DNA of 59,872 nucleotides from Gemmatimonadota bacterium (GCA_035687745.1 DASRVA010000183.1:1-59872), one strand, 5' to 3'; positions 1 to 31,030 are shown, numbered from the stretch's first letter. The notes: generated by a model not told the origin, from the letters alone. Program-made: numbers and translations.

Positions 1-240
1 GAGCGAGTAGAGGAGCGCCGAGCCGTGCCCGCCCGAGAGGACGAAGCGGTCGCGGTCCGGCCATGACGGATCGCCCGGGTCGTGCTCGAGGTATTTTTGC
101 CACAACACGTAGGCCATGGGCGCCGCGCCCAGCGGGAGCCCCGGATGCCCCGACTCGGCCGCCTGCGGCTGATCGATCGAGAGCGCCCTGAGGGCGTTGA
201 CGCACAGCCGGTCGAGGTCGCCGAACCGCTCTCCGCTCAT
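1..240 (-). CDS. tkt: Transketolase, N-terminal part (runs off the window edge)
   Basis: Manual translation from ATG at 240: [47 protein letters not shown]...[26 protein letters not shown] and [11 protein letters not shown] are transketolase signatures. ATGA overlap with the dipeptidase stop. Not in the ORF track. Confidence 0.93.
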
Positions 241-1565
241 TGCGGGTCTTCCGCCTCCGGCGGGATCTCGGGGGAGATCGTGCCCACGTACGGCTCGCGC
301 TCCTCCCGAAGGCGCTCGGACACGGCCTCGGCCTCGCGCATCACGCGCAGGAAGTTCAGACCCACCAGCTTGCGGATGTCCTCGTCCGAGTAGCCCCGGT
401 CTAGGAGCTCGGCGAGGAGGTCGGGGAAGCGCGACACGTCCTCCAGACCCACCGGGACATGGTCGATCCCATCGTAATCGGACCCCAGGCCGACGTGGTC
501 GATCCCCGCGACGTCGACGATGTGGTCGACGTGGTCGGCCACCTGGGAAAGGGTGGCCCTCGGGGCCGGGTTCTCCTCGAGCCAGGCCTTGAATGCCTCG
601 CGGACTCGCGCCGAATCACCGGAGAACGCGATCCGCAGGCTGTCGATGAGGGCTTCGCCGCGCTCGGTATGGAGACGGGTCTCTTCGTTGATGAAGCCGG
701 GAGAGAAGTTGACCATGACGACGCCGCCGTTCTCGGCGACCACCGGAAGGATCGCGTCGGGGACGTTCCGCGCGTGACCGGCCAGCGCACGCGCCGAAGA
801 GTGGCTGTAGATGACCGGCGCCTCGGTGATACGAAGCGCGTCCATCATCGTCGAGTCGGAGACGTGGCTCAGGTCGACCAGCATCCCGAGCCGGTTCATC
901 TCGCGGACGACATCCTCGCCGAAGGAGGTCAGCCCCTGGTGGAGGGGGCGGTCGGTGGCGGCATCGGCCCACGCGGTGCTCTTCCAGTGGGTCAGCGTCA
1001 TGTACCGGGCTCCGAGGTCGTAGAGCGTCCGCAGGACGTCCAGCGACCCCTCGATCGCATGGCCGCCCTCGACGCCGATCAGCGCCGCGATCCGGCCCCC
1101 CGCATGAGCGCGCTCGATGTCGGCGACCGTGGTGGCGTACACGAAGGTGTCAGGGTAGCGGTCGACCAGGCGGTGGATCAGGTCGATCTGCATGAGCGCG
1201 AACCGTGTGGCACCGGCGGCGATGAGCTCGGAAGGGACGTAGGCGGCGAAGAACTGTGCGCCCACGCGGCCCTGCCTGAGCCGCTCGAGGTCGGTGTGGA
1301 GCCCGGGCTGAGGTTCGGCGATGTCCAGCGAGTCCAAATCGCCGGCGGCCTTCTCGCGGATCTGCCACGGCAGGTCGTTGTGGCCGTCGACCAGCGGGAC
1401 CTCGTCGAGGAGGCGCAAGGCGCGCCCGACCGCCAGGGAGTCCGGGGGCCGGAAGGTGGTCGATGCGGCCGATCCACTTTCCGATTGCCCCGACGCCGGT
1501 GGGAGCGCGAAGAGCAGGCCCGTGATCGCGGCGAGCATGAACGGGGGCAGGGCACGGAGGCGCAC
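237..1565 (-). CDS. Membrane dipeptidase (peptidase M19, renal dipeptidase family), exported
   Basis: Signal peptide, then [30 protein letters not shown] and GLGSDYDG motifs. Confidence 0.92.
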
Positions 1566-1675
1566 AACGGGAACCTATCCGGGCGCGGGCCGCACGCAAC
1601 CCGATCCACGTCGATGGTCAACGATCGAGCCCGCCGTCCCCCGAACGGCGCGGAAACGTCCGCCGTCCTCCGGGA

Positions 1676-2773
1676 TCAGCCGTCTTCCACCACGACGATT
1701 CCGGTCATGAAGGGGTGGGGCGTGCAGTGGTAGGCGTACCTCCCCAGCCGGTCGAACCGCCGGGAGAAGCCCTCCCCGTTCTCGAGGAGATCCGAGTCGA
1801 AGGTTCCGTCATCGGCCGTCACCGTGTGCGCCACCGGATCGTCGTTGACCCATTGGACCGTTTGCCCGGGACGCACGCGGATCTCGGCCGGGGCGAAGGC
1901 GAAGTCGAGGATCGTGATGACGCTCTCTCCCGCCACGTCCTCCTGCCCGTGAAAGATGCGCGACCACTGTGAGAAGGTGCCCAGCGGCATCGTGAAGGCG
2001 AAACCGTACCTGAGGTTGGTGTCGCCCTCGGCGTCCTCGAATCCCCGGCTCGCTCCCTCCAGCGTCGTCGCGCCGACGTTCGAGACCACGAAACCGAGGG
2101 TGTGCGGCGACCCGGGGATCGCCATGTGGACTCCCCCGCTCCAGGCGCTGGGAAGCGTGTCGGCGGACACGACCCGCGCCACGTCGCCGCCGACCGCGAG
2201 GCGTGGGGTGAGGTGGAGGAGGAGCCCCGCGCCGAGCGCGGCTTCGGCCTCGTTCGCGCCGTACGCGGACGAGAAGGCCCGCGCGACGCCCAGGAGGGAG
2301 ACCGGTCCGGCCCGCAGGCGTCCGGACAGCTCGCCGTTCACGCTCTCGGTCGCCGTGTTGTAGGCGGCCGTCCCGGCCAGGTCGAGCCGCTCACCGAGAG
2401 CGTATCGCGCCCGAACCCACGGCTCCCACTCGTTCGGGGTCCCCGCCCCCAGCTCCGAGTTGGAAGCGTAGGTCGTACCAAGCGCGAAGCCGGCCGGCAG
2501 CCCTACGGCGAGCACGAACGTCGGGTAGTTCTGGATCTTCTTCTCGTCTTCTCCGATCAGCTCGAACCGGTGGAGGAAGGTGAACTCCGAGGTCCGCGGA
2601 CGGGGGACGGTCGTCCCGCCCAGGTTGGGCGAACGGGTGAGGAGGGACTGGGCGTCGGCCGGGGCCGGCGCGAAGGTGAGCCCGGCCAGGACGGCCAGCC
2701 CAGCCAGGACGGCCAGCAGACCGCGGCGGATCCGCAGTCTGGATCCACCCGCCCTCGGGTGAACCCCCGTCAT
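1676..2773 (-). CDS. Exported putative beta-barrel (DUF5777-like) protein with a C-terminal cupredoxin domain
   Basis: Start taken at ATG 2773 (ATGA overlap with the upstream stop). Signal peptide ending ADA-Q, alternating beta-strand pattern, C-terminal type-1 Cu ligands HTVT...YHCTPHPFM. The barrel family is a guess. Confidence 0.7.
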   Translation of the reverse strand: MTGVHPRAGGSRLRIRRGLLAVLAGLAVLAGLTFAPAPADAQSLLTRSPNLGGTTVPRPRTSEFTFLHRFELIGEDEKKIQNYPTFVLAVGLPAGFALGTTYASNSELGAGTPNEWEPWVRARYALGERLDLAGTAAYNTATESVNGELSGRLRAGPVSLLGVARAFSSAYGANEAEAALGAGLLLHLTPRLAVGGDVARVVSADTLPSAWSGGVHMAIPGSPHTLGFVVSNVGATTLEGASRGFEDAEGDTNLRYGFAFTMPLGTFSQWSRIFHGQEDVAGESVITILDFAFAPAEIRVRPGQTVQWVNDDPVAHTVTADDGTFDSDLLENGEGFSRRFDRLGRYAYHCTPHPFMTGIVVVEDG

Positions 2774-3225
2774 TCGACGGAGACCGAGCCCACCATTCCG
2801 GCCGACCGGTGGGGTTCGCAGAAGTAGGGGAACTCCCCGGCCGTCTGAAAGGTGTGCTCGAGGACGACTCCCTGGGAGCTTCTGCCTGCCTCCTGCCACT
2901 CGTCGTGCCCCTCCGGGGTGACGGTGTGGAAGAGCGAGCCGGCCTGATGCACCCAGCGAACCGTGGTGCCGGGGGCGATCGTCAGCTCGGCCGGATCGAA
3001 CCGGAGGGTCGAGTTGATCAGCTGCACCTCGACCACCATGCCACCCGGCGGCGGGGGAGGATTGGGATTCGGGTTGGGTGGGGGATCCGGTCCGGGACCG
3101 GGACCGGGACCGGGTCCGGGGCCCGTCATTTCGGTCCCGCCGCCGCTACCGCTGCACGCGGCGATGGCGAGAGCCACGACCACCAGCGCGCGTCGCAGGT
3201 CGAAACAAGTAACACGAGAGCTCAT
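2770..3225 (-). CDS. Cupredoxin (plastocyanin/azurin-like) lipoprotein with a Pro/Gly tether
   Basis: ATG 3225 after GGAGAGG. Lipobox IAAC, (GP)n-(PN)n linker, FHTVTP...YFCEPHRSAGM ligands. Confidence 0.88.
   Translation of the reverse strand: MSSRVTCFDLRRALVVVALAIAACSGSGGGTEMTGPGPGPGPGPGPDPPPNPNPNPPPPPGGMVVEVQLINSTLRFDPAELTIAPGTTVRWVHQAGSLFHTVTPEGHDEWQEAGRSSQGVVLEHTFQTAGEFPYFCEPHRSAGMVGSVSVE
3087..3123. repeat. Coding hexamer tandem repeat (CCGGGA/T)n encoding the Pro-Gly linker
   Basis: ccggtccgggaccgggaccgggaccgggtccggggcc inside the cupredoxin gene. Confidence 0.8.
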
Positions 3226-5626: not shown

Positions 5627-6184
5627 CTAGATGGCGCCGCCCCGGACCGGCCGGGAGGCCCGCAGCTCGTCGACGGCTTGCTTCAGGTCCGACTGAGCCC
5701 GCCGTAGCTCCAGGAGGGCCACGATACGGCGGCTCAGGGCATGGAGGGCCTTCGACTGCTGGGCGGTGAGAAAGCGCGGCTGGCGATCGATCACGCAGAC
5801 CGTGCCGAGTGCGAAGCCGTTGGACGTGATGAGGGGCGCGCCGGCGTAGGAACGGATGTTCGGGTCCCCGACCACGAGCGGGTTATCCGCGAAGCGCTCA
5901 TCCAGAGCGGTATCGGGGACCAGGAACAGGTCCGTTCCGAGGATCGCGTGCCCACAGAACGAAACCTCGCGGGACGTTTGCGTCAGAGCCGTCCCAGTGC
6001 GGCCTTTCAGCCACTGGTGATCCTCGTCGACCAGCGTGACCAGGGCGATCGGCGTGTCGCAGATCTCCGCGGCCAGCAGGGCGAGATCGTCGAAGTCCGG
6101 GTCCGGGACCGGCTCGATGGGCCCGTAGCTGCGGAGCGCTTCGAGCCGGTCGGCCTCGTTGGATGGAAGAGCGGGTGCCAGCAT
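5627..6184 (-). CDS. Stand-alone GAF domain protein
   Basis: E..RLEALR, FDDL..LAA.IC.TPIALVTLVD, SFCGHAI, RFADNP, YAGAPL, LGTVCVID; ends in a short coiled coil with no output domain. Confidence 0.88.
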   Translation of the reverse strand: MLAPALPSNEADRLEALRSYGPIEPVPDPDFDDLALLAAEICDTPIALVTLVDEDHQWLKGRTGTALTQTSREVSFCGHAILGTDLFLVPDTALDERFADNPLVVGDPNIRSYAGAPLITSNGFALGTVCVIDRQPRFLTAQQSKALHALSRRIVALLELRRAQSDLKQAVDELRASRPVRGGAI

Positions 6185-6510: not shown

Positions 6511-7383
6511 TCAGCGCACCTTGACGACGTAGTAGTCGAAGGGCCCCGCGACCTCCTGGAACCAGTGCGGCGTCCCGTTGGGGACGACAACCACGTCCCC
6601 CGGCACGAGCCGGCGCGTGGCACCATCCTCGATCGAGGCCCCCCGGATCTCGTTGGCGGCGGTCGTCGTGCCGTCCACGACGCTGCCCCCCGTCACGAAA
6701 GTGGCCTCGCCTTTCAGGACGTAGATGATGTCGGTGTCGAGGGCGTGGACCTCGGCCATCCCCGCGCTGTCCCGATGGCTCGCGTGGACCATGTAGCGGC
6801 CGCTGTCGAGCAGAACAGCTCCCTTCGCGAAGGCGGCCGAGACGGCGTCCCTTCCGATGTAGGTGACCTCCCCCGTCGAGGAGGCGGCGGTCGTGAGCGA
6901 TCCCAGAGCCTGGGCTCCGGCGATCGCCAGCTCCTCGTCCTGCTGCGCACTCGCCGCGCCGCTCACGCCGACACCGCCCACGATCTCGCCGTCCACGACG
7001 ACGGGTACCCCGCCCTGGAGGGGAGTGAAGAACGCGTCGGGGAGGGCCACCATGGGCGTCCGGCCGTTTCTGATGATCTCCTCGAAGACCGAGGTGGGCC
7101 GCTTGAAGAGCACGGCCGTCCGCGCCTTGCCAATCGAGATCGTAGCGCCGGCCGCGAAGGTGCCGTCCAGCCGTTCGAGGGCGATCAGGTTGCCGCCGTC
7201 GTCGACGACGGCGATCACACCGCCCGGCGCTCCCTTGGCCTCTGCCGCGGCCCGTGCCGCAGCGATCACCTGCCGGGCCCCGTCCAGGGTGAGCGAGCGC
7301 TTGGTGACGACCTGCGACCAGGCGGGGTTCGCAACCCCGGTCAGGAGCAGGGCGACCGTGATGATCCTGTGCGATCTCATCAT
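6511..7383 (-). CDS. GlcG/HbpS-like heme-binding protein fused to a C-terminal cupin domain, exported
   Basis: ATG 7383 after GGAGG. Signal peptide, IAVVDDGGNLIALERLDG...KARTA...GGVP...GGVGVSG, then VHALDTDIIYVLKG...GDVVVVPNGTPHWF cupin. Confidence 0.85.
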   Translation of the reverse strand: MMRSHRIITVALLLTGVANPAWSQVVTKRSLTLDGARQVIAAARAAAEAKGAPGGVIAVVDDGGNLIALERLDGTFAAGATISIGKARTAVLFKRPTSVFEEIIRNGRTPMVALPDAFFTPLQGGVPVVVDGEIVGGVGVSGAASAQQDEELAIAGAQALGSLTTAASSTGEVTYIGRDAVSAAFAKGAVLLDSGRYMVHASHRDSAGMAEVHALDTDIIYVLKGEATFVTGGSVVDGTTTAANEIRGASIEDGATRRLVPGDVVVVPNGTPHWFQEVAGPFDYYVVKVR

Positions 7384-7472: not shown

Positions 7473-8108
7473 CTAGAATGACGGCTGGGCGAGCGAGGGT
7501 TCCGAGAGCACCGCCGGAACAAGGCCGTGGTCCACGGCGATTCCCCACAGCTCGCGCTGGAGCAGCGCGCGCGCCCGGTGGAGCCGTGAGCGTACCGTCC
7601 CCACCGGACAGCCGAGCATCGAGGCGATCTCGGCGTACGAGAGATCCTCGACGAAGTAGAGCGTCGCTACCGCGCGGTACTGGAGCGGCAGCGCGAGGAT
7701 GGCGGAGCTCACCTTCTCGGCGTCGAGGCGACTGAGAAACGTGCGCGCAGGGTCAGGATCGTCCTTGTGCATTCCGGCCTCAGCGGTCCGGCCGTAGAGA
7801 TAAAGCTCGGGCGTGTCGTCGATCGACACGGTGGATGCCGCCCTCTTGTTCTTGCGGCAGCGCATGAGGAAGGCGTTGGTGAGGATCTTGAGAAACCACG
7901 CCTTGAAGTTGGATCCCGGCTGGAAGCCATCGAAGCCGCGGAAGGCCAGCAGCGCGGCCTCCTGGACGACGTCCTCGGCGTCGATCGGGTCGCGCGTCAG
8001 GTGAAGGGCGGCCGAGTAGGCGCGCGGAAGGACCTGGTCCAGCAGGGTCTCGAAGGTGCGCCGTTCCGCCGGAGTCAGCGCGCGTCGGGAGCGGGCCGCG
8101 GTCGTCAT
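7473..8108 (-). CDS. ECF RNA polymerase sigma factor (SigH/SigR-like)
   Basis: ATG 8108 (ATGA overlap with the STAS stop). DAEDVVQEA...FQPGSNFKAWFLKILTN (region 2), LSYAEIASMLGCPVGTVRSRLHRAR (region 4). Confidence 0.95.
   Translation of the reverse strand: MTTAARSRRALTPAERRTFETLLDQVLPRAYSAALHLTRDPIDAEDVVQEAALLAFRGFDGFQPGSNFKAWFLKILTNAFLMRCRKNKRAASTVSIDDTPELYLYGRTAEAGMHKDDPDPARTFLSRLDAEKVSSAILALPLQYRAVATLYFVEDLSYAEIASMLGCPVGTVRSRLHRARALLQRELWGIAVDHGLVPAVLSEPSLAQPSF
7477..7503 (-). promoter_or_regulatory. ECF-type promoter GGAACC-N17-CATT, inside the 3' end of the sigma gene, upstream of the heme-binding gene
   Basis: GGAACC ctcgctcgcccagccgt CATT on the minus strand. Confidence 0.65.
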
Positions 8109-8374
8109 CGGGGGTCTCCGTCGGCGAGGATCTCCCGAAGGAGCGGGGAGCACCCCGAGATCTCGAGTCCCTGCTGCTGGAGCGCCTTGAGGAGCCGGAT
8201 GGCCGAGCGATCCACATAGCGCACGCCGGCGAGGTCCAGGCGCACGCTCGAGCCGCCGCCCTGGATCGCCCAGCACTCGCGCTCGAGGAGGAGCGTGTCC
8301 TCGCCGACGATCCGTCCCTCGACCTGGAGGGCAACCCGGTTGTCCTGGCTGGCGATGGGGGTGATGCGGAGCAT
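8105..8374 (-). CDS. Small STAS-domain protein
   Basis: ATG 8374 after GAAAGGAG. VALQVEGRIVG...VRLDLAGVRYVDRSAIRLL STAS pattern. Confidence 0.75.
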   Translation of the reverse strand: MLRITPIASQDNRVALQVEGRIVGEDTLLLERECWAIQGGGSSVRLDLAGVRYVDRSAIRLLKALQQQGLEISGCSPLLREILADGDPR

Positions 8375-8429
8375 GTGGCTCGGGCTCTCCTTTCGTCTCC
8401 GCCGTGTCGCGGGGCCGGCCTTCACTAAG

Positions 8430-8444
8430 GCAGCCCGCGTGCCA
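8430..8444 (-). promoter_or_regulatory. Sigma54 -24/-12 promoter for the STAS-ECF operon
   Basis: TGGCACGCGGGCTGC: GG-N10-GC with an exact TGGCACG -24 box, 55 nt upstream of ATG 8374, just downstream of an enhancer-binding protein gene. Confidence 0.8.
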
Positions 8445-8463
8445 GAGCCCGGGTGGGGTCCGT

Positions 8464-8488
8464 AATGGCCTTTCCTGCAAAGGGTTAC
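8464..8488 (-). promoter_or_regulatory. Degenerate ECF-type promoter GTAACC-N15-CATT (possible autoregulation)
   Basis: One mismatch and a shorter spacer than the 7-site motif. Confidence 0.3.
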
Positions 8489-8531
8489 GACTGGAGGGTG
8501 GGGGACGGACGGGTGTGGCTCGCAGGTCAGG

Positions 8532-8558
8532 CGTTCCCACTATTTCGTGACGTTCCCA
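8532..8558 (-). repeat. Direct repeat TGGGAACG-N11-TGGGAACG, candidate upstream activator sequence
   Basis: cgttccca at 8532-8539 and 8551-8558, about 90-115 nt upstream of the -24 box. Confidence 0.5.
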
Positions 8559-8616
8559 ACATGATGGGAGACGGGCGGGCCCGGGAGCGGACCCGTCCGC
8601 CGCGAGGCGTGAAGGC

Positions 8617-11544
8617 TCAGACGATATGGGGGCGGGCGATCCCCAGCTTCTTCATCCGCGCCTCGAGCGTGGTGGGCTTCAGTCCCAGGAGAGCCGCCGC
8701 GCCCCGCGGGCCGCTGACCACCCACCCAGCGCGGCGGAGGGTCTCGAAGATGTGATCCCGCTCGACCTCGGCCAGCGTGCGATCTCCGTCGATGGGAGCG
8801 CGGATCGCGGTGACGTCGGCGGGCCGCGCGGCCCCGGTCACCCAGTCGCCGAGCTCCAGCCCGTCACCGGCTGAGGTGATGATCGAACGCTCGATCACGT
8901 TCCTCAGCTCGCGCACGTTGCCCGGCCAATCGTATGCCACGAGGGCGTTCATGGTTCTCTGGGGGATCCGCTTCAGCGCCTTCCCGAGCCGCGGTCCCTC
9001 CTTCAGCAGGAAGTAGCGCGCCAGGCTCGGAATGTCCTCGCGGCGCTCGCGAAGGGCCGGCACGTGCACGGGGAATACGTTCAGCCGGTAGAAGAGGTCG
9101 GAGCGGAAGCGGCTTTCACCGACCGCCTCGGCGAGGTCCCGGTTCGTGGCGGCGATGACGCGGACGTCGACCCGGATCGTGGCTGTCCCGCCGACGCGCT
9201 CGATCTCTCCCTCCTGCAGCACCCGCAGGAGCTTGACCTGGAGATCCAAGGGCAGGTCGCCGATCTCGTCCAGGAAGATCGAGCCGCCGTGGGCGAGCTC
9301 GAAGCGCCCCACCTTCCGCGCGGTGGCGCCGGTGAAGGCGCCCTTCTCATGGCCGAAAAGCTCCGACTCGACGAGCCCCGCCGAAATCGCCCCGCAGTTG
9401 ACCACGACGAGAGGCCGCTCCCGGCGAGGGCTCAGCGCGTGGATGGCGCGCGCGAGCAGCTCCTTCCCCGTCCCCGTCTCGCCGGTGATCAGCACCGTCG
9501 CGTCGGTCGGAGCGACCTGCTCGACCTGGGCCAGCAGGCGCCTGAGGCCCACGCTCTGGCCGATGATCTCCTCGAATCCGTGCTGGGTTCGGATCTCCTC
9601 CTGCAGGTAGACGTTCTCCGCTTCGAGGCGGTCGCGCAGTCGGCGCAGTTCCTCATGGGCGAGGCAATCGCCCAGCGCCACCGACACCGCGCCGACCACC
9701 TGCTCGAGGAACGTCCGGCGTACGTTCTCATACGCTCCCTTCTCGGCTGCCATGAAGAAAAGCGCGCCTCGGCTCCGATCGCCGCTGACCAAAGGCATAG
9801 CGCATAGAGACTCCATGCCCTCTTGCAGCATCACATCGAAAGTCACGGGAAAGGACTCGCGGAGCTCGTCCCGCGAACCGGTGATTACCCACTCGCGGCG
9901 CTGTATCACCCAGTCGCAGGCGGTGCCCGCCGCCGGCAACACGGTGGGCTGGGTCGGCTCCGCCTGAGCCGTCCGCGCGATCAGGATGTGTCCCTGCAGC
10001 TTGTCGCCCTCGATCGGCAACTCGATGCCGAAGCGATCCGTGGGCACTAGCGATCTCAAAGACCAGGCCAGCGCTCCGAACAACTCGTCGCGGTCCAGGT
10101 GCCGTCCGATGGCGCGGTTCATGGCGAGGAGGGAATCGAGCTCCCGATTCAAAGCACGGACTTCATCGTCGGCGCGCACTCGCTGGAGCTCGGCCGCTGC
10201 CCGGGCGGTGAACACCTTGAGGACGGCCAGGAGTCGGGGCATCTCCTCCATCGGCCGGTCGTTCATGACGACGAGATGTCCCATGACACGACCCTGGGCG
10301 TCCAGGAGGGGGAGCCCGAGGTAGCTCTCGGCCGACAGCTCGACCAGTGCCTGGTCCTCCGGGAACAGCGACCGCAGCTGACTGGGGTGATAGGCGATCT
10401 GTCCTCCTACGACCGTCTGGCAGGGGGTGCCTTCGAGGTCGTACTCGAAGTCTCTCCCCACCTCGTTCCCATTCCAGAAGGCGAGCGTCCGGGCACGGCT
10501 CCGGCCGGCATCGAGGCACTCGGCGACGAACGCGTAGCGGACGTCGAGGGCCATGGCGAGATGGCGCACTAGGGAGCGGAAGAAATCGTCCCCAGTCGCC
10601 GCCGCTGTCCCCTCGCTGATCGCCCGGAGCGTCCGCTCGCTGCGAACGCGCTCGGTGACGTCGCGGGAGATCGCCAGCAGTTGTTCCGGTCGTCCCTGCG
10701 CGTCGACGATGGCGTTCACGACCACGTCCCACCACATCGGCTTCTCGCCCATCGTCGGGCAGAATCCTACGAACCGGCCCACCCCTCCTCGTTTCGCTTC
10801 CTCCAACGCCCGGCTGGCCGCCTCGCGGTGCGGACCCTCCCAGAAGTCGAGCCAGAAGGTGTTGCGAAGGGGCTCGAAATCGCAGATCTCGAGGATCTCC
10901 ATGCCGCCCTGATTCATGGAGAGCAGGCGGCCGTCGGCGTCGAGGAGCTTGATGCAGTCGCGGCTCGACTCGATCATCCGGGTCTGGAGCTGCTGACTCG
11001 TTCGCTGCGCCTCCTCGACACCCTGCATGTCGTTGAGCGCCTGCTCGAGATCCTTCCGTGTGCGTCGCAGCTCGAGGAGGCTCACCACCTGACGGCTGAG
11101 TGCCCGGAGCACCTGTGCTTGGTGCGGGGAGAGATCGTGCGGCTCGTGATCGATCACGCACAGGGTTCCCAGGGCATGACCATCGGGTGTGACCAGAGGG
11201 GCGCCGGCGTAGAACCGGATGTGAGGATCACTCGTCACAAAAGGGTTGTCGGCGAAGCGAGCGTCCGCTGTGGCGTCCGGCACGACAAAAAGTTCGGAGC
11301 CCAGGATCGCGTGGGCGCAAAACGAGACGTCTCGGGGCGTCTCGGCGGATTCCAGCCCGATCCGCGCCTTGAACCACTGCCGATCGGCGTCGACCAGGGA
11401 CACCAGCCCGATCGGCGTCCCGCAAATGCGTGCGGCGAGCGCGACGAGGACATCGAAGTCGTCGTCCGACGACGTATCGAGGATATGGTATCGCCTGAGG
11501 GCTTCGAGTCGGGCGGATTCGCTGGCGGGAACGGGGGCCTTCAT
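8617..11544 (-). CDS. Sigma54-dependent enhancer-binding protein, GAF-PAS-GAF-GAF-AAA+-HTH (FhlA-like)
   Basis: [47 protein letters not shown] and C-terminal HTH. ATG 11544; the ORF track extends to 11571. Confidence 0.95.
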
Positions 11545-11609
11545 GCCTGCCTGTCCAAGGGCGTAGAGCATATACGATTCCCGAGGACGGCGTCAAATCA
11601 CTCCCCTTG

Positions 11610-11636
11610 GGAACCGGCCTCCCGCACACCCGCATT
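11610..11636 (+). promoter_or_regulatory. ECF-type promoter GGAACC-N17-CATT upstream of the spondin operon
   Basis: GGAACC ggcctcccgcacacccg CATT. Confidence 0.6.
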
Positions 11637-11696
11637 GATGAGGATGACCCCCGGCGAACGGCCGGGTCGACCGATGCTCTGGTCCCCACCTGGGAT

Positions 11697-11711
11697 CGGG
11701 ACGCGGTATGC
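11697..11711 (+). promoter_or_regulatory. Sigma54-like promoter for the spondin operon
   Basis: CGGGACGCGGTATGC: GG-N10-GC with ACG and TGC conserved, 36 nt upstream of ATG 11748. Confidence 0.5.
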
Positions 11712-11747: not shown

Positions 11748-12524
11748 ATGGATCGCCCTGTCAGCTCGCTCGTTCTCGTCGCTGTCGCCACCCTGTCTTG
11801 CGCCGGGGAACCGGCTCCCGAGGAAACGCCTCCCGCCGACACCATGGCCCAGGCTTCTCCCGCGGCTCCGCAAAGCTTCGCCGTGCACATCGAGAACGTG
11901 TCCACGCCGGCCACGCTCCAGCTCTCGGACGGCACCTCCGCACCGGCGCCGACCGCGCCCGTCCTGTGGGTCGTCCACACGAGCCCGGATCCGATCTTCA
12001 CGACCGGGCAGGCGGACCGCGGCGACGGGCTCGAGCAATTGGCCGAGGACGGCGACCCCTCCGTTCTCGCCGCGGCCCTCCAGGGGGCCGACGGCGTCGT
12101 CGCCGGCGGCTTCGTGAACGTCCCGATGGGGGACGCCGAGGCAGGTCCGATCACGCCCGGCAAGGCCTACCACGTGGATCTCATGGCCGCCCGGGGCCAG
12201 CGCCTGACGCTGGCCATGATGTTCGGGCAATCGAACGACCTGTTCTATGCCCCGGAGGGGGCCGGCCTCGATCTCTTCGACGCCGCCGGCCAGCCGTTCT
12301 CCGGTGAGGTCACGAGCCGGCTGGTCCTGTGGGACGCTGGCACGGAAAGCAACCAGGAACCGGGCGCGGGTCCCGACCAGGCGCCCCGCCAGAAGGCCCC
12401 CAACACGGGCGCCGCCGAAGGCGGAACCGTGCGCCTCGTGGACGACGACTTCACCTATCCTGCCGTGGAGCAGGTCGTCCGCGTGACGATCAGGCCGGCC
12501 GCCCTGGCATCCGGGACGCCGTGA
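11748..12524 (+). CDS. Spondin_N-domain lipoprotein
   Basis: Lipobox TLSC; VLWVVH...[29 protein letters not shown] spondin motifs. Confidence 0.85.
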
Positions 12525-13630
12525 AGGCGATCGCCGTCCGTCCGGGGGAAGCGGGCAGCATCCACCTCGCCGAACTCCCCCCGCCCAGCGTCAGCGACGT
12601 TACGGGGGGCCGCGGTGTCCTCGCCCGGATTCTCCGGGTCGGGGTCGACGCGACCGACCGCGAGATCAACGCAGGCGAGTACGGTGCCGCGCCGGAGGGC
12701 TCCGACATCCTGGTCCTGGGGCACGAGAGCTTCGGCCGGGTCGAGGCGGTGGGCCCCGAAGTGACCGAGCTCGCCCCCGGCGACTACGTCGTGTTCATGG
12801 TGCGCCGGCCCGGAGGGTCCATCTACGACCGGATCGGCCAGCAGGATTTCACCACCGACGACACGTACTTCGAACGCGGAATCAGCCGCCGCCACGGCTA
12901 CCTGACCGAGATGGTGGTCGACGACGCGGACTACGCGATCCGTGTTCCGCAGGGCCTCAAGGAGGTGGGGGTCCTGCTCGAGCCCACGTCGGTGGCCGAG
13001 AAGGCGATCCGGCAGGCGTACTCGATCCAGCGCCGGCTCGGCGTGTGGCGGCCGCGGCGGGCGATCGTGCTCGGCGCAGGGCCCCTGGGCCTGATCGCCA
13101 CGATGGCGCTCAGGGTCCGCGGCCTCGACGTGATCACCTACGCCCTGGCGAAGAAGCCGAACCGGAACGCCGACCTCGCCGAGGCGGTGGGTGCCCGATA
13201 CGTGAGCGCCGACACGCCGCTCAAGCAGGTCGTCCAGGACCACGGCAGCATCGATCTCATGATCGAGGCGACCGGATTCAGCCCGCTCGTCTTCGAGGCC
13301 ATGGAGCGTCTGGGGAGGAACGGGGTCCTGGTCCTCACGGGGATCGCCGGCGGCGACCGCAAGGCCGACATGGTTCACGCCGACCACATCCTGCAGAGCT
13401 TCGTCCTGGGGAACAAGGTGGTGGTGGGGAGCGTCAACGCCGCGCGCGTCGACTTCGAGCGCGGGGTATCCGACCTGGCGATGGCGGAGTCGTTCTGGCC
13501 GGGCTGGTTGTCGCGTCTCCTCACCCACCGCGTCGACGGCCTCGAGGGATACGGTGAGATGATCCGGCTCCTCACCGAGGCGAAGGACGCCATCAAGGTC
13601 TACGTTGAGGTTCGCAACGGTCGCGCATGA
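12521..13630 (+). CDS. Glucose 1-dehydrogenase, archaeal-type Zn-dependent MDR
   Basis: GTG 12521 overlaps the upstream stop. [25 protein letters not shown]...[26 protein letters not shown]. Confidence 0.85.
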
Positions 13631-14469
13631 TGGAACGCCGACTCGGCGATCACTGGCCGGAGTATCTGATCGAAGGGCTGGGCCTGGCCGCCTTCATGGT
13701 CTCGGCCGGCGTGTTCGGGACGCTCCTCGAGTATCCCGGCTCGCCGGCGCGGCAGGCCCTCCCCGATCCCTTCGTCCGCCGTGCGCTGATGGGGCTGGCC
13801 ATGGGGTCGACCGCCGTGGCGATCATCTACTCCCGGTGGGGGAAACGGTCGGGCGCCCACATCAATCCGGCCGTCACGCTGACCTTTGCGCGTCTGGGGA
13901 AGATCGACCCGCGGGATGCGGTGGCCTACATGGCGGCGCAGTTCGCGGGGGGCGCAGCGGGCGTGCTGGTGGTCACGGCGCTCATGGGGGCCGCCTTCGC
14001 GGAGCCGCCGGTTCGCTACGTCGCTACCCTCCCGGGACAGGCGGGACCGGAGGCAGCCTTCCTGGCCGAGGCCGCAATCTCGTTTCTGCTCATGCTGGTC
14101 ATTCTGTCGGCCACGAACGCCCGGCGGCTGGCCCGGTTCACGGGCCTCTTCGCCGGCGTCCTCGTTGCGACCTACATCGCCATCGAGGCGCCGGTCAGCG
14201 GGATGAGCATGAACCCCGCGCGCAGCTTCGCCTCGGCGCTGCCGGGCGGGCTCTGGATGGCCCTCTGGGTCTACTTCACCGCGCCGCCAATCGGGATGCT
14301 CCTCGCCGCCGAGATCTACCTGCGGGCGCGGGGTCGGGATAGGGTACGATGCGCCAAGCTCCACCACGACAATGACCAACGTTGCATCTTTCGGTGCGCC
14401 TACGGGACGATGCCTTCGCCCTTGGGGGATGCGGCGGTGACGGGCGCGTCGTTGAAGGGCGCGCCATGA
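13627..14469 (+). CDS. Aquaporin/MIP family channel
   Basis: [10 protein letters not shown] and SMNPARS (two NPA boxes), 6 TM helices, Cys/His-rich C-terminal tail. Confidence 0.93.
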
Positions 14470-15524
14470 GGATGCGTCGGGTCGGCCCGCGGCGTCTCTG
14501 TCGCGTCATCTACCTGGCGGGCGCGCTCGCCCCCAGCCTGCTTCCCGGTCAGACGCCGGGCGGCGACGGCGGCCTGACAGCGGTCGAGCGCGTCGCCACG
14601 GTCGGGTTCACGGTCTCCGACATGGATCGCTCGGTGGCGTTCTTCTCGGATGTGCTCACCTTCGAGACGGTCACCGACGTCGAGCTCGCGGGGGCCGAGT
14701 ATGAATCCCTTCATGGTGTCTTCCCCGTCCGGATGCGGAAGGTCCGGATGCGGCTCGGGGCGGAGGAGATCGAGCTCACCGAGTACCTAGCTCCGCGCGG
14801 GCGTCCGATCCCGATCGAGTTCCGCAGTCAGGACCGATGGTTCCAGCACATCGCGATCGTCGTCCGCGACATGGATGAGGCCTACCGGAGGCTCCGCGAG
14901 CACAAGGTCGAGCACGTATCCTCCGGGCCCCAACGACTTCCCGACTGGAATCCGAACGCGGGCGGGATCGAGGCCTTCTATTTCCGCGATCCCGACGGTC
15001 ACGTGCTGGAGATCATCTCGTTTCCCGAAGGCAAGGGAGATCCGCGCTGGCGGCAGTCGACGGGTCGCCTCTTTCTCGGGATCGACCACACCGCGATCGT
15101 CGTCGACGACACGGAGAGGAGCCTTCCCTTCTACCGGGACCATCTGGGCTTTCGCGTTGCCGGGGAGAGCGAGAACTACGGCCCCGAGCAGGAGCGGCTG
15201 AACGCCGTGCGCGGGGCCCGGCTCCGGATCACCGGCCTCCGCGCTCCGAGCGGCCCCGGGATCGAGTTCCTGGACTATCTGACGCCCGCCGACGGCCGGC
15301 CGATGCCGGAGGACGAGCGCGCCAGCGACCTCTTCCACTGGGAGACGACCCTCGATGCCTGCGACCCTGGGGCGGTCGCGAGCGGCCTGCGCTCGGCCGG
15401 CGCGGAGTTCGTCTCGGCCGGGCTCGTGACCCTGCCCGGCGACGAGCTGGGGTTTCGGGAGGCGTTCCTGGTCCGTGATCCGGATGGGCATGTCATGCGG
15501 ATCGCCGGCGCGGGATGCGAGTAG
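14466..15524 (+). CDS. Double VOC/glyoxalase domain protein, possibly exported
   Basis: ATG 14466 overlaps the aquaporin stop. VSDMDRSVAFF, FQHIAIVV, FRDPDGHVLE, IDHTAIVV, RDPDGH. Confidence 0.87.
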   Translation: MRMRRVGPRRLCRVIYLAGALAPSLLPGQTPGGDGGLTAVERVATVGFTVSDMDRSVAFFSDVLTFETVTDVELAGAEYESLHGVFPVRMRKVRMRLGAEEIELTEYLAPRGRPIPIEFRSQDRWFQHIAIVVRDMDEAYRRLREHKVEHVSSGPQRLPDWNPNAGGIEAFYFRDPDGHVLEIISFPEGKGDPRWRQSTGRLFLGIDHTAIVVDDTERSLPFYRDHLGFRVAGESENYGPEQERLNAVRGARLRITGLRAPSGPGIEFLDYLTPADGRPMPEDERASDLFHWETTLDACDPGAVASGLRSAGAEFVSAGLVTLPGDELGFREAFLVRDPDGHVMRIAGAGCE

Positions 15525-15624
15525 CGGCCGGGCGGGCACGACGGTAAGGTCGGCTCGGGCGCTGGTTCCTCGAGGGCCCGGGGTCGCGTCACGATACCTC
15601 ATCCAGAATCCCCGCGGAGGCAGC

Positions 15625-17028
15625 ATGGATTACGACGTCATCATCATCGGGGCCGGCCAGGCCGGCTCGCCCCTCGCCCGTCGGCTGGCCGCCGACGGCA
15701 AGCAGACCCTCCTCGTCGAGCGGGCGCACGTCGGCGGCACCTGCGTCAACCACGGCTGCACGCCGACCAAGACGATGGTGGCGAGCGCCCGCGCGGCCCA
15801 CGTGGCGCGGCGAGCGGCGCGTCTCGGAGTACGCGTCCAGGGCGTGCGCGTCGATCTCGGCGCCGTGGTCGACCGCAAGGACGAGATCGTCCGCTCGTTC
15901 CGTAACGGGCTGCGTGGGAAGCTTGAAAAGACCGAGAGCCTGACGCTCGTGGCAGGCCAGGCGCGGTTCCTCGGCCCGCGGGAGATCCAGATCGACGGCG
16001 ATCGGCACCACGGCGACGTCGTGGTCGTGAACGCGGGCGCCCGCCCGTCGATCCCGCCGATCCCGGGGCTCGAGACCGTGGACTGGCTCGACAGCACCTC
16101 GATCATGGAGCTCAGGGAGCTGCCAGGCCATCTCGTCGTCCTCGGCGGCGGCTACATCGGCTGCGAGTTCGGCCAGATGTTCCGCCGCTTCGGGAGCGAG
16201 GTCACGATCGTAAACCGTGGCCCGCACCTCCTCGACCGCGAGGATGAGGACGTCTCGGAAGCGATCGAAGGGGTCTTCCGGGACGAGGGGATCGCGCTCC
16301 GGCTGGACGCCGCGGCCAAGGGTGTGTCGCGGCGTGAGGGAGCGCGGAAGGCCGTCGGGGCGGCCATGGCGAAGGGTGGGGTCGCGGTCGATCTCGAGGA
16401 CGGCCCGCCGATCGAGGGCACCCATCTCCTCGTGGCCGTGGGCCGGGTCCCCAACACCGAGGCGCTCGGCTGCGACGCCGCCGGAATTGAGCTCGACGAG
16501 CGCGGCTTCATCAAGGTCGACGACCGGTATCGGACCAGCGCCGACGGCGTCTACGCGGCCGGCGACGTCACCGGCGGGCCCCAGTTCACCCACACGTCGT
16601 GGGACGACCACCGGATCCTGTACGACATCCTGCAGGGGAAGAGCGGGCGCGGACGGAGAGGGCGGCTCGTTCCCTACAGCGTGTTCACCGATCCGCAGGT
16701 GGCGCGGGTGGGGCTCTCCGAGCGCGAGGCGAAGGAGAAGGGAATCGCTTACGAGGTGGCGACGATCCCGTTCGGGTCGATCGCCCGCGCGATCGAGCTC
16801 GACGAGAAGTCGGGCACGATGAAGGTCCTGCTCGACCCCGCGACCGAGCGGGTCCTGGGCGCCGCCATCGTGGGCGTCGAGGCGGGCGAGCTGATCCACA
16901 TCTTCGTGACCCTCATGCAGGCCGGCGCTTCGGCGCGGGCGATCGTGGATGCCGAGGCGATCCACCCCACCCTGGCCGAGGGGGTGCAGTCGCTGGTCAT
17001 GACGCTCCCGCGCTACGCGCTGGGGTGA
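15625..17028 (+). CDS. Class I pyridine nucleotide-disulfide oxidoreductase (mercuric reductase/RclA-like)
   Basis: IIGAGQAG, GGTCVNHGCTPTK redox disulfide, GGGYIGCE, YAAGDV, C-terminal HPTLAE; no MerA-type C-terminal Cys pair. Confidence 0.9.
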   Translation: MDYDVIIIGAGQAGSPLARRLAADGKQTLLVERAHVGGTCVNHGCTPTKTMVASARAAHVARRAARLGVRVQGVRVDLGAVVDRKDEIVRSFRNGLRGKLEKTESLTLVAGQARFLGPREIQIDGDRHHGDVVVVNAGARPSIPPIPGLETVDWLDSTSIMELRELPGHLVVLGGGYIGCEFGQMFRRFGSEVTIVNRGPHLLDREDEDVSEAIEGVFRDEGIALRLDAAAKGVSRREGARKAVGAAMAKGGVAVDLEDGPPIEGTHLLVAVGRVPNTEALGCDAAGIELDERGFIKVDDRYRTSADGVYAAGDVTGGPQFTHTSWDDHRILYDILQGKSGRGRRGRLVPYSVFTDPQVARVGLSEREAKEKGIAYEVATIPFGSIARAIELDEKSGTMKVLLDPATERVLGAAIVGVEAGELIHIFVTLMQAGASARAIVDAEAIHPTLAEGVQSLVMTLPRYALG

Positions 17029-28068: not shown

Positions 28069-28332
28069 CTAGGAGGGTTCTTCCCCGGATTCCAGGCTGT
28101 CTAGGAGCCTGCGCACCTTGGCCCTCAGCGTGTCGGGCATCGTGATGCGCCGCAAGGAGCTCTTGATCTCACGCAGGAAGGTCATCTCGAACGCGTACTC
28201 GTGAGCGCACTCCGCACAGTCGTCGAGGTGCTCCTCGACCCGTGCGATCTCCTCCGCGGACAGCTCTCGATCGACGTAATCGTTGAGCCGCCGGAAGACC
28301 TGTTCGCACGTATAGCGACTGCCGTCGATCAT
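28069..28332 (-). CDS. Zinc-binding (ZAS, zf-HC2) anti-sigma factor, RshA/RsrA-like, soluble
   Basis: TCEQVFRRLNDYVDREL...HLDDCAEC (Cys plus HxxxCxxC), MPDTLRAKV; no TM helix. Confidence 0.88.
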   Translation of the reverse strand: MIDGSRYTCEQVFRRLNDYVDRELSAEEIARVEEHLDDCAECAHEYAFEMTFLREIKSSLRRITMPDTLRAKVRRLLDSLESGEEPS

Positions 28333-28390
28333 GGGTAGGCAGCCACGATATCCCGTGGGTCCATCTCTGAGCAATGGTCGTGCCGGGAGA

Positions 28391-30896: not shown

Positions 30897-30920
30897 CCGT
30901 CTCAAGGTGATGCTCACCGT

Positions 30921-30946
30921 AATGCGGGCCGCGCGGGCGCGGTTCC
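30921..30946 (-). promoter_or_regulatory. ECF-type promoter GGAACC-N16-CATT upstream of the GT4-GH57-anti-sigma operon
   Basis: GGAACC gcgcccgcgcggcccg CATT. Confidence 0.8.
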
Positions 30947-31030
30947 GAGGCTTCTGGGGGCGGGACCCGCGACGGCGCATTCGGTCGCCGCCGCGGGGCA
31001 AGGGGCGGGACGGTTGCGGGGAGAATCGGA

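Follow-up and report, generated by a model that had tools for sequence, protein, structure and literature searches.

A 59,872-nucleotide stretch of DNA from a Gemmatimonadota bacterium (GCA_035687745.1 DASRVA010000183.1:1-59872; called 'the window' below, and the source of all coordinates unless another locus is named) contains a minus-strand operon for a STAS-domain protein and a sigma factor of the extracytoplasmic function (ECF) type, situated downstream of the gene for a sigma-54 enhancer-binding protein (called 'the activator'). The best reading of this arrangement, judged from sequence and its comparison between genomes, was a sigma-54-to-ECF cascade gated by a multi-domain sensor. Specifically, it was considered quite probable that a functional sigma-54 promoter at 8444..8430 (minus strand) is fired by the adjacent activator by way of two upstream dyads, and that the resulting ECF sigma factor, held under a zinc anti-sigma factor (ZAS), serves a second tier of promoters. 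This reading was favoured because a conserved GG/GC core with varying spacer, the dyads and a near-identical helix-turn-helix (HTH) in the activators were found together with an rpoN gene and an adjacent activator gene.

The minus-strand gene order was activator, STAS protein, ECF sigma factor, secreted HbpS-like/cupin protein, stand-alone GAF protein and EVE protein. A gap of 242 nt separates the activator stop codon (8617-8619) from the ATG of the STAS gene (8374), which is preceded by a ribosome-binding site, AAAGGAGAG, at 8393..8385. An earlier reading of the window made without comparative data (the sequence-only reading) had placed a -24/-12 element at 8430-8444, ahead of the STAS-ECF operon, and the element was indeed present at 8444..8430 on the minus strand. 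The element, TGGCACGCGGGCTGC, lies 172 nt past the activator stop codon and 55 nt ahead of the STAS ATG; GG and GC are exactly 10 nt apart, and the surroundings conform to a TGGCAC-N5-TTGC-like context with a single departure, a C for T before the GC. Because of the position of the GC, transcription is predicted to start near 8418. When a matrix was built from seven other loci with the window left out, the site ranked 17th of approximately 5.5 million positions in the genome. The rpoN gene, the presence of which had been named as a check on the sequence-only reading, was intact on contig C8 (462 aa, RpoN box ARRTVQKYR; PF04552 E-value 4.9e-63).

The activator gene (8617..11571, minus strand) had been described as encoding a 975-aa protein with an intact GAFTGA loop and a GAF-PAS-GAF-GAF input region, and this description was borne out, apart from a length of 984 aa when the first ATG (11571) is used instead of the one at 11544. 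Pfam domains comprised GAF (residues 39-162), PAS (201-310), GAF (approximately 328-462) and GAF (492-633) in the input half, followed by Sigma54_activat (669-835; PF00158 E-value 4e-72), AAA_lid (841-907) and HTH_8 (932-976) in the output half. With a Walker A motif, GETGTGKE, at residue 697 and GAFTGA at residue 744, the protein has the features of an enhancer-binding protein; counting this one, seven full activators of the class are present in the genome. For the activator gene itself, a consensus scan alone yielded a weak sigma-70-like promoter candidate, TTGACG-18-TATGCT (11567..11596, minus strand); if real, it would favour the start at 11544 and thus the 975-aa form.

Upstream of the -24/-12 element are two dyads with the consensus TCCCAA-N4-TTGGGA. 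Dyad 1 (8554..8569; TCCCATCATGTTGGGA, read on the minus strand), a candidate enhancer with its centre 118 nt ahead of the -24 GG, was the top-scoring dyad of the whole genome (22.7 bits), and dyad 2 (8535..8550; TCACGAAATAGTGGGA, read on the minus strand), 19 bp from dyad 1, was the second best. A dyad pair at an offset of 18-20 bp occurred nowhere else in the genome. Equivalent dyads were present in related loci, with an offset of 19 bp in L044, L047, L050, L132, L133 and L175 and of 18 bp in L136 and L173. We infer that the activator binds these dyads.

The comparative evidence came from 40 loci with an orthologue of the ECF sigma factor, taken from genomes of the phylum, and from metagenomic contigs with closer relatives; 44 loci were sorted into two classes. 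A locus was called 'linked' when the ECF gene was preceded by a STAS gene, by an activator gene or by both, which applied to eight loci (the window, L044, L047, L050, L131, L132, L133 and L136); the remaining 36 were called 'canonical'. In all eight linked loci, GGCAY-N6-TGCYT was found 37-78 nt before the start codon, while the spacer between the two halves varied (CGGGC, AGGAG, ATGCA, GTGCG and others), and all eight had at least one dyad, usually two, centred 85-139 nt upstream of the GG. The strict sigma-54 pattern was present in 8/8 linked and 0/36 canonical loci. ECF-type promoters showed the opposite distribution (0/8 versus 13/36, respectively), with GGGAACC-N16-GCGTTA as the canonical consensus. 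As the pattern had been derived from these eight loci, it was tested prospectively on loci fetched later: L173, L175 and L176, all linked, carried the exact pattern and the dyads, and the canonical L171 did not. In the combined set, GGCAY-N6-TGCYT was thus found in 11/11 distinct linked loci and 0/37 canonical loci, and two tandem dyads lay approximately 100 nt upstream in most of the 11. The comparison indicates that a sigma-54 promoter has replaced the ancestral ECF-type promoter in the linked loci.

The activator varied in one half only. Its last 395 or so residues (end of the last GAF, AAA+, lid and HTH) were 60-63% identical (blastp), and residues 656-984 were 66-72% identical (tblastn), to activators upstream of STAS-ECF genes elsewhere; the recognition part of the HTH was nearly invariant among the orthologous activators, unlike the sensory half. 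The four-sensor input emphasised in the sequence-only reading is present in the window but proved to be lineage-specific; in orthologous activators its place is taken by a kinase-STAND-GAF input or by an N-terminal half unrelated to it. Activators of the former type, in L050, L173, G160, G154 and G347, were 1716-1910 aa long with a Ser/Thr-kinase, AAA_16 (STAND) and GAF input (L050 2119-7566 and L173 1098-6590, for example), and the L176 activator (70-3012; 980 aa) showed no similarity to that of the window over its first 590 residues, which carry its GAF domains. Sensors have thus been swapped, with at least three different halves joined to one constant output module. A dedicated activator-promoter pair would be expected to look like this: output half and enhancer conserved, sensors interchangeable.

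Several observations weigh against a cascade of this kind. The -12 region reads CTGC, not TTGC; yet CTGC was also found at four of the five other intergenic, gene-oriented sites in the genome, and since most intergenic sites read this way, the C in the window is no defect. Taken by itself, the element was no commoner than chance would give: 5 occurrences in the window with at most two mismatches, relative to 13.8 expected from shuffled sequences, and 9 occurrences of TGGCAC-N5-YTGC in the 2.74 Mb genome (69.6% G+C), relative to approximately 17 expected by arithmetic from the base composition. The positions of the nine sites point the other way, six or seven of them being intergenic and aimed at a gene. 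A search for intrinsic terminators between the activator and STAS genes gave none, and transcription may read through from the former. A GC-rich hairpin with a 13-pair stem, possibly terminator-like, is located just past the activator stop codon (8570..8601, minus strand), and the 70 nt at 8556-8625 (minus strand) folded at -27.3 kcal/mol with a z-score of -1.04, which is not significant for the GC content; the 5' leader likewise folded no better than shuffled sequence. The motif pattern and the dyad matrix were built from the same family of loci; only the 37 controls and the three loci fetched afterwards are independent of this derivation. Finally, the locus was absent from the window's own genus and family apart from this genome, and its local function rests on orthology since it is missing from the rest of the family.

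Against this background, the -24/-12 match could be fortuitous, in which case the STAS-ECF genes would be reached by transcripts that start at the activator gene's own promoter, or would have a conventional sigma-70 or ECF promoter within the gap. The lack of enrichment in window and genome and the lack of a convincing terminator speak for this, as does the AT-rich block between the dyads and the promoter, which can be read as GTAACC-N15-CATTA and is loosely like the ECF promoter of the family. A fortuitous match would not, however, be expected to give a core in 11/11 linked loci with a variable spacer and in 0/37 controls, nor to persist in L131, L133 and L136, where there is no upstream activator gene to read through from; furthermore, a strict ECF-type promoter was found in none of the linked loci. 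Given these comparative data, a fortuitous match was regarded as very unlikely. Only slightly less unlikely was a real sigma-54 promoter that answers to a different activator, or dyads bound by some other regulator, with the neighbouring activator controlling something else. Six further full activators are encoded in the genome, and in G160 and G154 the activator gene lies apart from its target. On the other hand, the activator gene was directly upstream of the ECF cassette in 7/11 linked loci, the HTH was nearly invariant alongside the conserved dyads, and the dyad pair was confined to this one place in the genome. Even G160 and G154, where the dyads still precede the STAS-ECF genes, each had one clear orthologue of the activator (70-71% identity over the AAA+-HTH half, relative to at most 53% for paralogues), so that the unlinked activator and its presumed enhancer coexist.

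The AT-rich block itself (GTAACCCTTTGCAGGAAAGGCCATTA, 8463..8488, minus strand) was conserved as yTAAC...AA...TTA in an alignment of eight loci and could be either an IHF-like bending site or a weak ECF-type promoter. In the latter case, the operon would be under dual control, with positive autoregulation by the sigma factor after the first firing (feed-forward), an arrangement that would supplement the sigma-54 cascade and not replace it. The conservation of yTAAC-N17-yTTA in the eight loci, and its resemblance to GGAAC-N16-CGTTA at a spacing 1-2 nt shorter, are in keeping with a promoter, but the -35-like part has no GG and the spacing differs from that of all of the at least 13 clear promoters of the family. 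Most copies also fit the IHF-like core xTAA-N4-TTG, that of L176 being perfect (WATCAANNNNTTR), and bending sites typically lie, as this block does, between enhancer and promoter; the genome has two genes of the HU/IHF family. Dual control was therefore considered doubtful, if less so than a fortuitous match or a different activator.

The gating proposed in the sequence-only reading, by sigma-54 and a multi-input sensor, gained support from the comparative loci, but control of the sigma factor appears not to be a matter of transcription alone, an orthologous ZAS gene having been found at 28069-28332. The ECF sigma factor (7473..8108, minus strand; 211 aa) contains only regions sigma-2 and sigma-4 (Pfam Sigma70_r2 and Sigma70_r4_2) and scored 99.9 bits against TIGR02937 (cut-off 42.9). 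Its closest solved relative was M. tuberculosis SigH (E-value 6e-27), and its best NCBIfam model was SigH_actino (TIGR02947) with 123 bits, which is below the equivalog cut-off of 251 and makes the protein SigH/SigR-like rather than an assigned SigH. The RsrA-like ZAS protein (28069..28332, minus strand; 87 aa), 20 kb away, has the HxxxCxxC signature in the form HLDDCAEC, as in the soluble ZAS partners of ECF12 (SigH-SigR type) sigma factors; it scored 51.8 bits with antisig_RsrA (NCBIfam cut-off 62.5). Identity to the ZAS proteins of 40 of the 44 first-compared loci was 31-64% (mostly 39-58%), and the genome contained only one other ZAS candidate, a weak one.

In canonical loci the ZAS gene follows the sigma gene, mostly directly, and the pair is often preceded by a GH57 gene. 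The ZAS gene of the window follows a GH57 gene too, at the place taken by the sigma-ZAS pair in canonical loci, and this position, together with the orthology, indicates that the sigma gene moved out of the ancestral operon and the anti-sigma gene stayed. ZAS orthologues also persisted, unlinked, in G160, G154 and G347, which argues for the STAS gene being an addition and not a replacement. There thus appear to be two gates on the sigma factor: sigma-54 and the activator control its transcription, and the ZAS protein acts on it after translation. A 454-aa Ser/Thr kinase gene was observed between the ECF and ZAS genes of L176 (4218-5982), and this gene and the kinase-fused activators hint at a link between Ser/Thr phosphorylation and the sigma/anti-sigma system.

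Two ECF-type promoters in the window matched the consensus derived from the orthologous loci, in the sub-clade flavour GGAACC-N15/16-GCATT. The first, GGGAACC-N16-GCATTGA (11609..11638, plus strand), precedes the gene for a spondin-domain lipoprotein (ATG 11748; spondin domain by NCBIfam match), the operon of which runs divergently from the activator gene, and is likely to be read by the ECF sigma factor. The other, CGGAACC-N15-GCATTAC (30919..30947, minus strand), precedes the glycosyltransferase-GH57-ZAS operon and would provide negative feedback. The same type of motif was present before equivalent genes in L050, L131 and L132, in L050 before the equivalent operon.

The proposed sequence of events is as follows. 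The activator, as an oligomer, would bind the two TCCCAA-N4-TTGGGA dyads at 8535-8569, and DNA bending, probably aided by the AT-rich block at 8463-8488, would bring the AAA+ ring to sigma-54 holoenzyme at 8444..8430. A signal perceived by the GAF-PAS-GAF-GAF input would free the AAA+ domain, and ATP hydrolysis would then open the sigma-54 closed complex. A single mRNA starting near 8418 would encode the STAS protein, the SigH/SigR-like ECF sigma factor and probably the HbpS-cupin protein. Newly made sigma factor would be held by the ZAS protein (28069-28332) until relieved, whereupon the freed sigma factor would read the GGAACC-N15/16-GCATT promoters of the spondin and ZAS operons, leading to more ZAS being made. 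With a sigma-54/activator step followed by a ZAS step, the circuit would need both the activator signal and relief from ZAS, and would include negative feedback.

The STAS protein (8105..8374, minus strand; 89 aa) is encoded by the first gene of the operon, and its Pfam STAS_2 and STAS matches were below cut-off. As no solved relative was found by sequence, it was identified by fold search only: a confident AlphaFold model (predicted local distance difference test score 88) shared the STAS fold with RsbV, SpoIIAA and RsfB, its best Foldseek matches (template-modelling scores of 0.73-0.77). The position after the VD motif was R, Q, T or C in 10 STAS sequences and is thus not a conserved phosphorylatable Ser/Thr, and no gene for a GHKL-type anti-sigma kinase was found at the locus, which was the region examined. 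Cys34 was invariant in the ten aligned STAS sequences, and a second cysteine was present in nine of them. The STAS (8374..8105) and ECF sigma (8108..7473) genes overlap as ATGA, and such translational coupling suggests that the STAS protein is a stoichiometric partner of the sigma factor. More speculatively, it could represent a new kind of ECF regulator that either binds the sigma factor directly or acts as a redox-sensitive antagonist of the ZAS protein. It would then complete a three-input cassette (ligands of the activator, thiol state through the ZAS protein, and STAS) that came about a single time in Gemmatimonadota, when a SigH-like sigma gene left the sigma-ZAS operon, and whose activator afterwards received exchangeable sensor halves; this proposal is tentative and was considered less likely than not. 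ZAS proteins are not known to have a STAS antagonist. In L050, the STAS sequence aligned from an ATT (7735-7737), no ATG, GTG or TTG being seen there or just upstream, which may mean that the start codon is an unusual one or that the assembly is wrong here.

An orthologue of the ECF sigma factor was found in 52 of 401 Gemmatimonadota genomes, at 47-64% identity. In the relative G057 a 52%-identical ECF gene lies behind a membrane-protein gene, without STAS or activator genes. Among the matches listed in a scan of the genome contigs with the ECF protein, generic ECF peptides dominated, and paralogues reached at most 44% identity. A hand-made DNA pattern for the STAS gene recovered all known copies locally and nothing in metagenome contigs. 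In a tree of the ECF proteins, all 11 sigma-54-linked sigma factors fell in one clade of 14 rows (support 86/86); the tree needed three label changes, and none of 500 label shuffles was as clustered. The clustering in a single clade indicates one or a few origins of the rewiring inside the sigma-ZAS family.

Cascades from sigma-54 to an ECF sigma factor are already known, and the present one is a variant assembled from different parts. The layout had been called uncommon for an ECF sigma factor in the sequence-only reading, and uncommon it is, but with precedents: a sigma-54 promoter controlled by HrpRS drives hrpL (PMC8999054, PMC8103513), and P2 of E. coli rpoE uses RpoN with QseF (PMC8103513). 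In the HrpR/HrpS-hrpL system (ECF32; Pseudomonas syringae, and HrpS-hrpL in Pantoea/Erwinia), an ECF gene is likewise placed on a sigma-54 promoter with a dedicated enhancer-binding protein, resulting in a sigma-to-sigma cascade. HrpL, however, is from a different ECF group and lacks an anti-sigma factor, whereas the SigH/SigR-like sigma factor of the window keeps its ZAS partner; HrpR and HrpS have no sensory domains and are controlled by partner proteins, whereas the activator here has four; and a co-transcribed STAS gene distinguishes the present operon. The window's cascade is therefore not a member of the HrpL type (ECF32), and the likeness is at the promoter level only. The rpoE P2 case also combines an ECF sigma factor that has an anti-sigma factor with a sigma-54-dependent input, but rpoE has several promoters, autoregulated ones among them, in contrast to the absence of the ancestral ECF-type promoter here, and QseF is a two-component response regulator, unlike an activator sensing through GAF/PAS domains. 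The main text of the ECF re-classification paper (PMC7826278) contained no occurrence of 'STAS', 'sigma-54' or 'sigma54'.

The closest sequence relatives of the sigma and anti-sigma factors were SigR-RsrA of Streptomyces coelicolor and SigH-RshA of Mycobacterium tuberculosis (ECF12). The Gemmatimonadota family shares with them the HxxxCxxC zinc motif and a promoter of the GGAAC...GTT type, and its canonical members the same autoregulated sigma-ZAS operon. The proteins of the window differ in scoring below the NCBIfam equivalog cut-offs, and their genes in that the sigma gene has been split from the ZAS gene, has lost the autoregulatory promoter and has been placed behind sigma-54. The activator resembles FhlA, NifA and NorR in having N-terminal GAF, central AAA+ with GAFTGA, and a C-terminal Fis-type HTH, but its input is GAF-PAS-GAF-GAF and its target a sigma factor operon; the best NCBIfam match, FhlA (NF011958; 460.6 bits, cut-off 830), reflects architecture only, and the protein is not an FhlA equivalog. 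With SpoIIAA, RsbV and RsfA-RsfB, the STAS protein has in common the fold and being a small single-domain protein encoded with a sigma factor, and differs from them by the lack of a conserved phosphorylatable Ser/Thr after the VD motif and by an associated anti-sigma factor of the ZAS kind.

What the window and its relatives add to the known cascades is a version with a GAF-PAS-GAF-GAF sensor, an ancestral autoregulated sigma-ZAS operon for comparison, the persistence of the ZAS protein, and second-tier promoters that can be seen in the sequence. The locus would represent a natural case of regulatory rewiring: a sigma/anti-sigma pair that activates itself and is normally inseparable has come apart, control of the sigma gene has passed to a sigma-54 switch that depends on ATP and is tightly off, and the anti-sigma gene remains in the regulon of the sigma factor. 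The 37 canonical and 11 rewired loci constitute material on circuit evolution, one AAA+-HTH output with its enhancer occurring alongside at least three sensor halves, and the promoter, the dyads and a sensor-less activator could serve as a compact orthogonal set of parts. The STAS partner raises the question of whether STAS domains regulate ECF or ZAS systems, and regulon prediction becomes feasible in a phylum with almost no genetics.

Other sigma-54-like sites were noted in the window and the genome. A second one in the window (11697-11711, CGGGACGCGGTATGC) was rejected, having GGGAC instead of GGCAC, with no second dyad pair in the genome; TTGGGAACC, beside it, belongs instead to an ECF-type promoter as its -35 element. 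A further site close to the sigma-54 consensus, CGGCACGACCATTGCT (28385..28371, minus strand), was located in the 58-nt gap between the GH57 and ZAS genes, 39 nt before the ZAS ATG; it was not conserved before the ZAS gene in L050, L131 and L132, and no dyads were found nearby. Elsewhere in the genome, TGGCAC-N5-YTGC sites at C190:8858-8872 (minus strand) and C2:3799-3813 (plus strand) lie in gaps right after an activator or AAA+ gene, and an activator-then-promoter layout thus recurs in this genome.

Downstream of the sigma gene, the secreted HbpS-like and cupin protein (6511..7383, minus strand; Pfam) is encoded 89 nt past the ECF stop codon. No terminator-like sites were found on the minus strand, and the HbpS-like/cupin gene also follows the ECF gene in the close relatives L046 and L044; it is probably on the same transcript as the STAS and ECF genes. 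The stand-alone GAF protein (5627-6184, minus strand; 185 aa) shared 56% identity with the activator's first GAF domain and could act as a decoy or co-sensor of the activator's ligand. Genes for a Zn-alcohol dehydrogenase, a MIP channel, a glyoxalase and a Pyr_redox_2 protein flank the cassette in the window (12329-17028) and in the distant loci L173 (7690-14654) and L175 (2071-8167), and HbpS-like and cupin genes flank it in the window and L173. The shared flanking genes suggest a conserved aldehyde or thiol-stress island as the core of the regulon.

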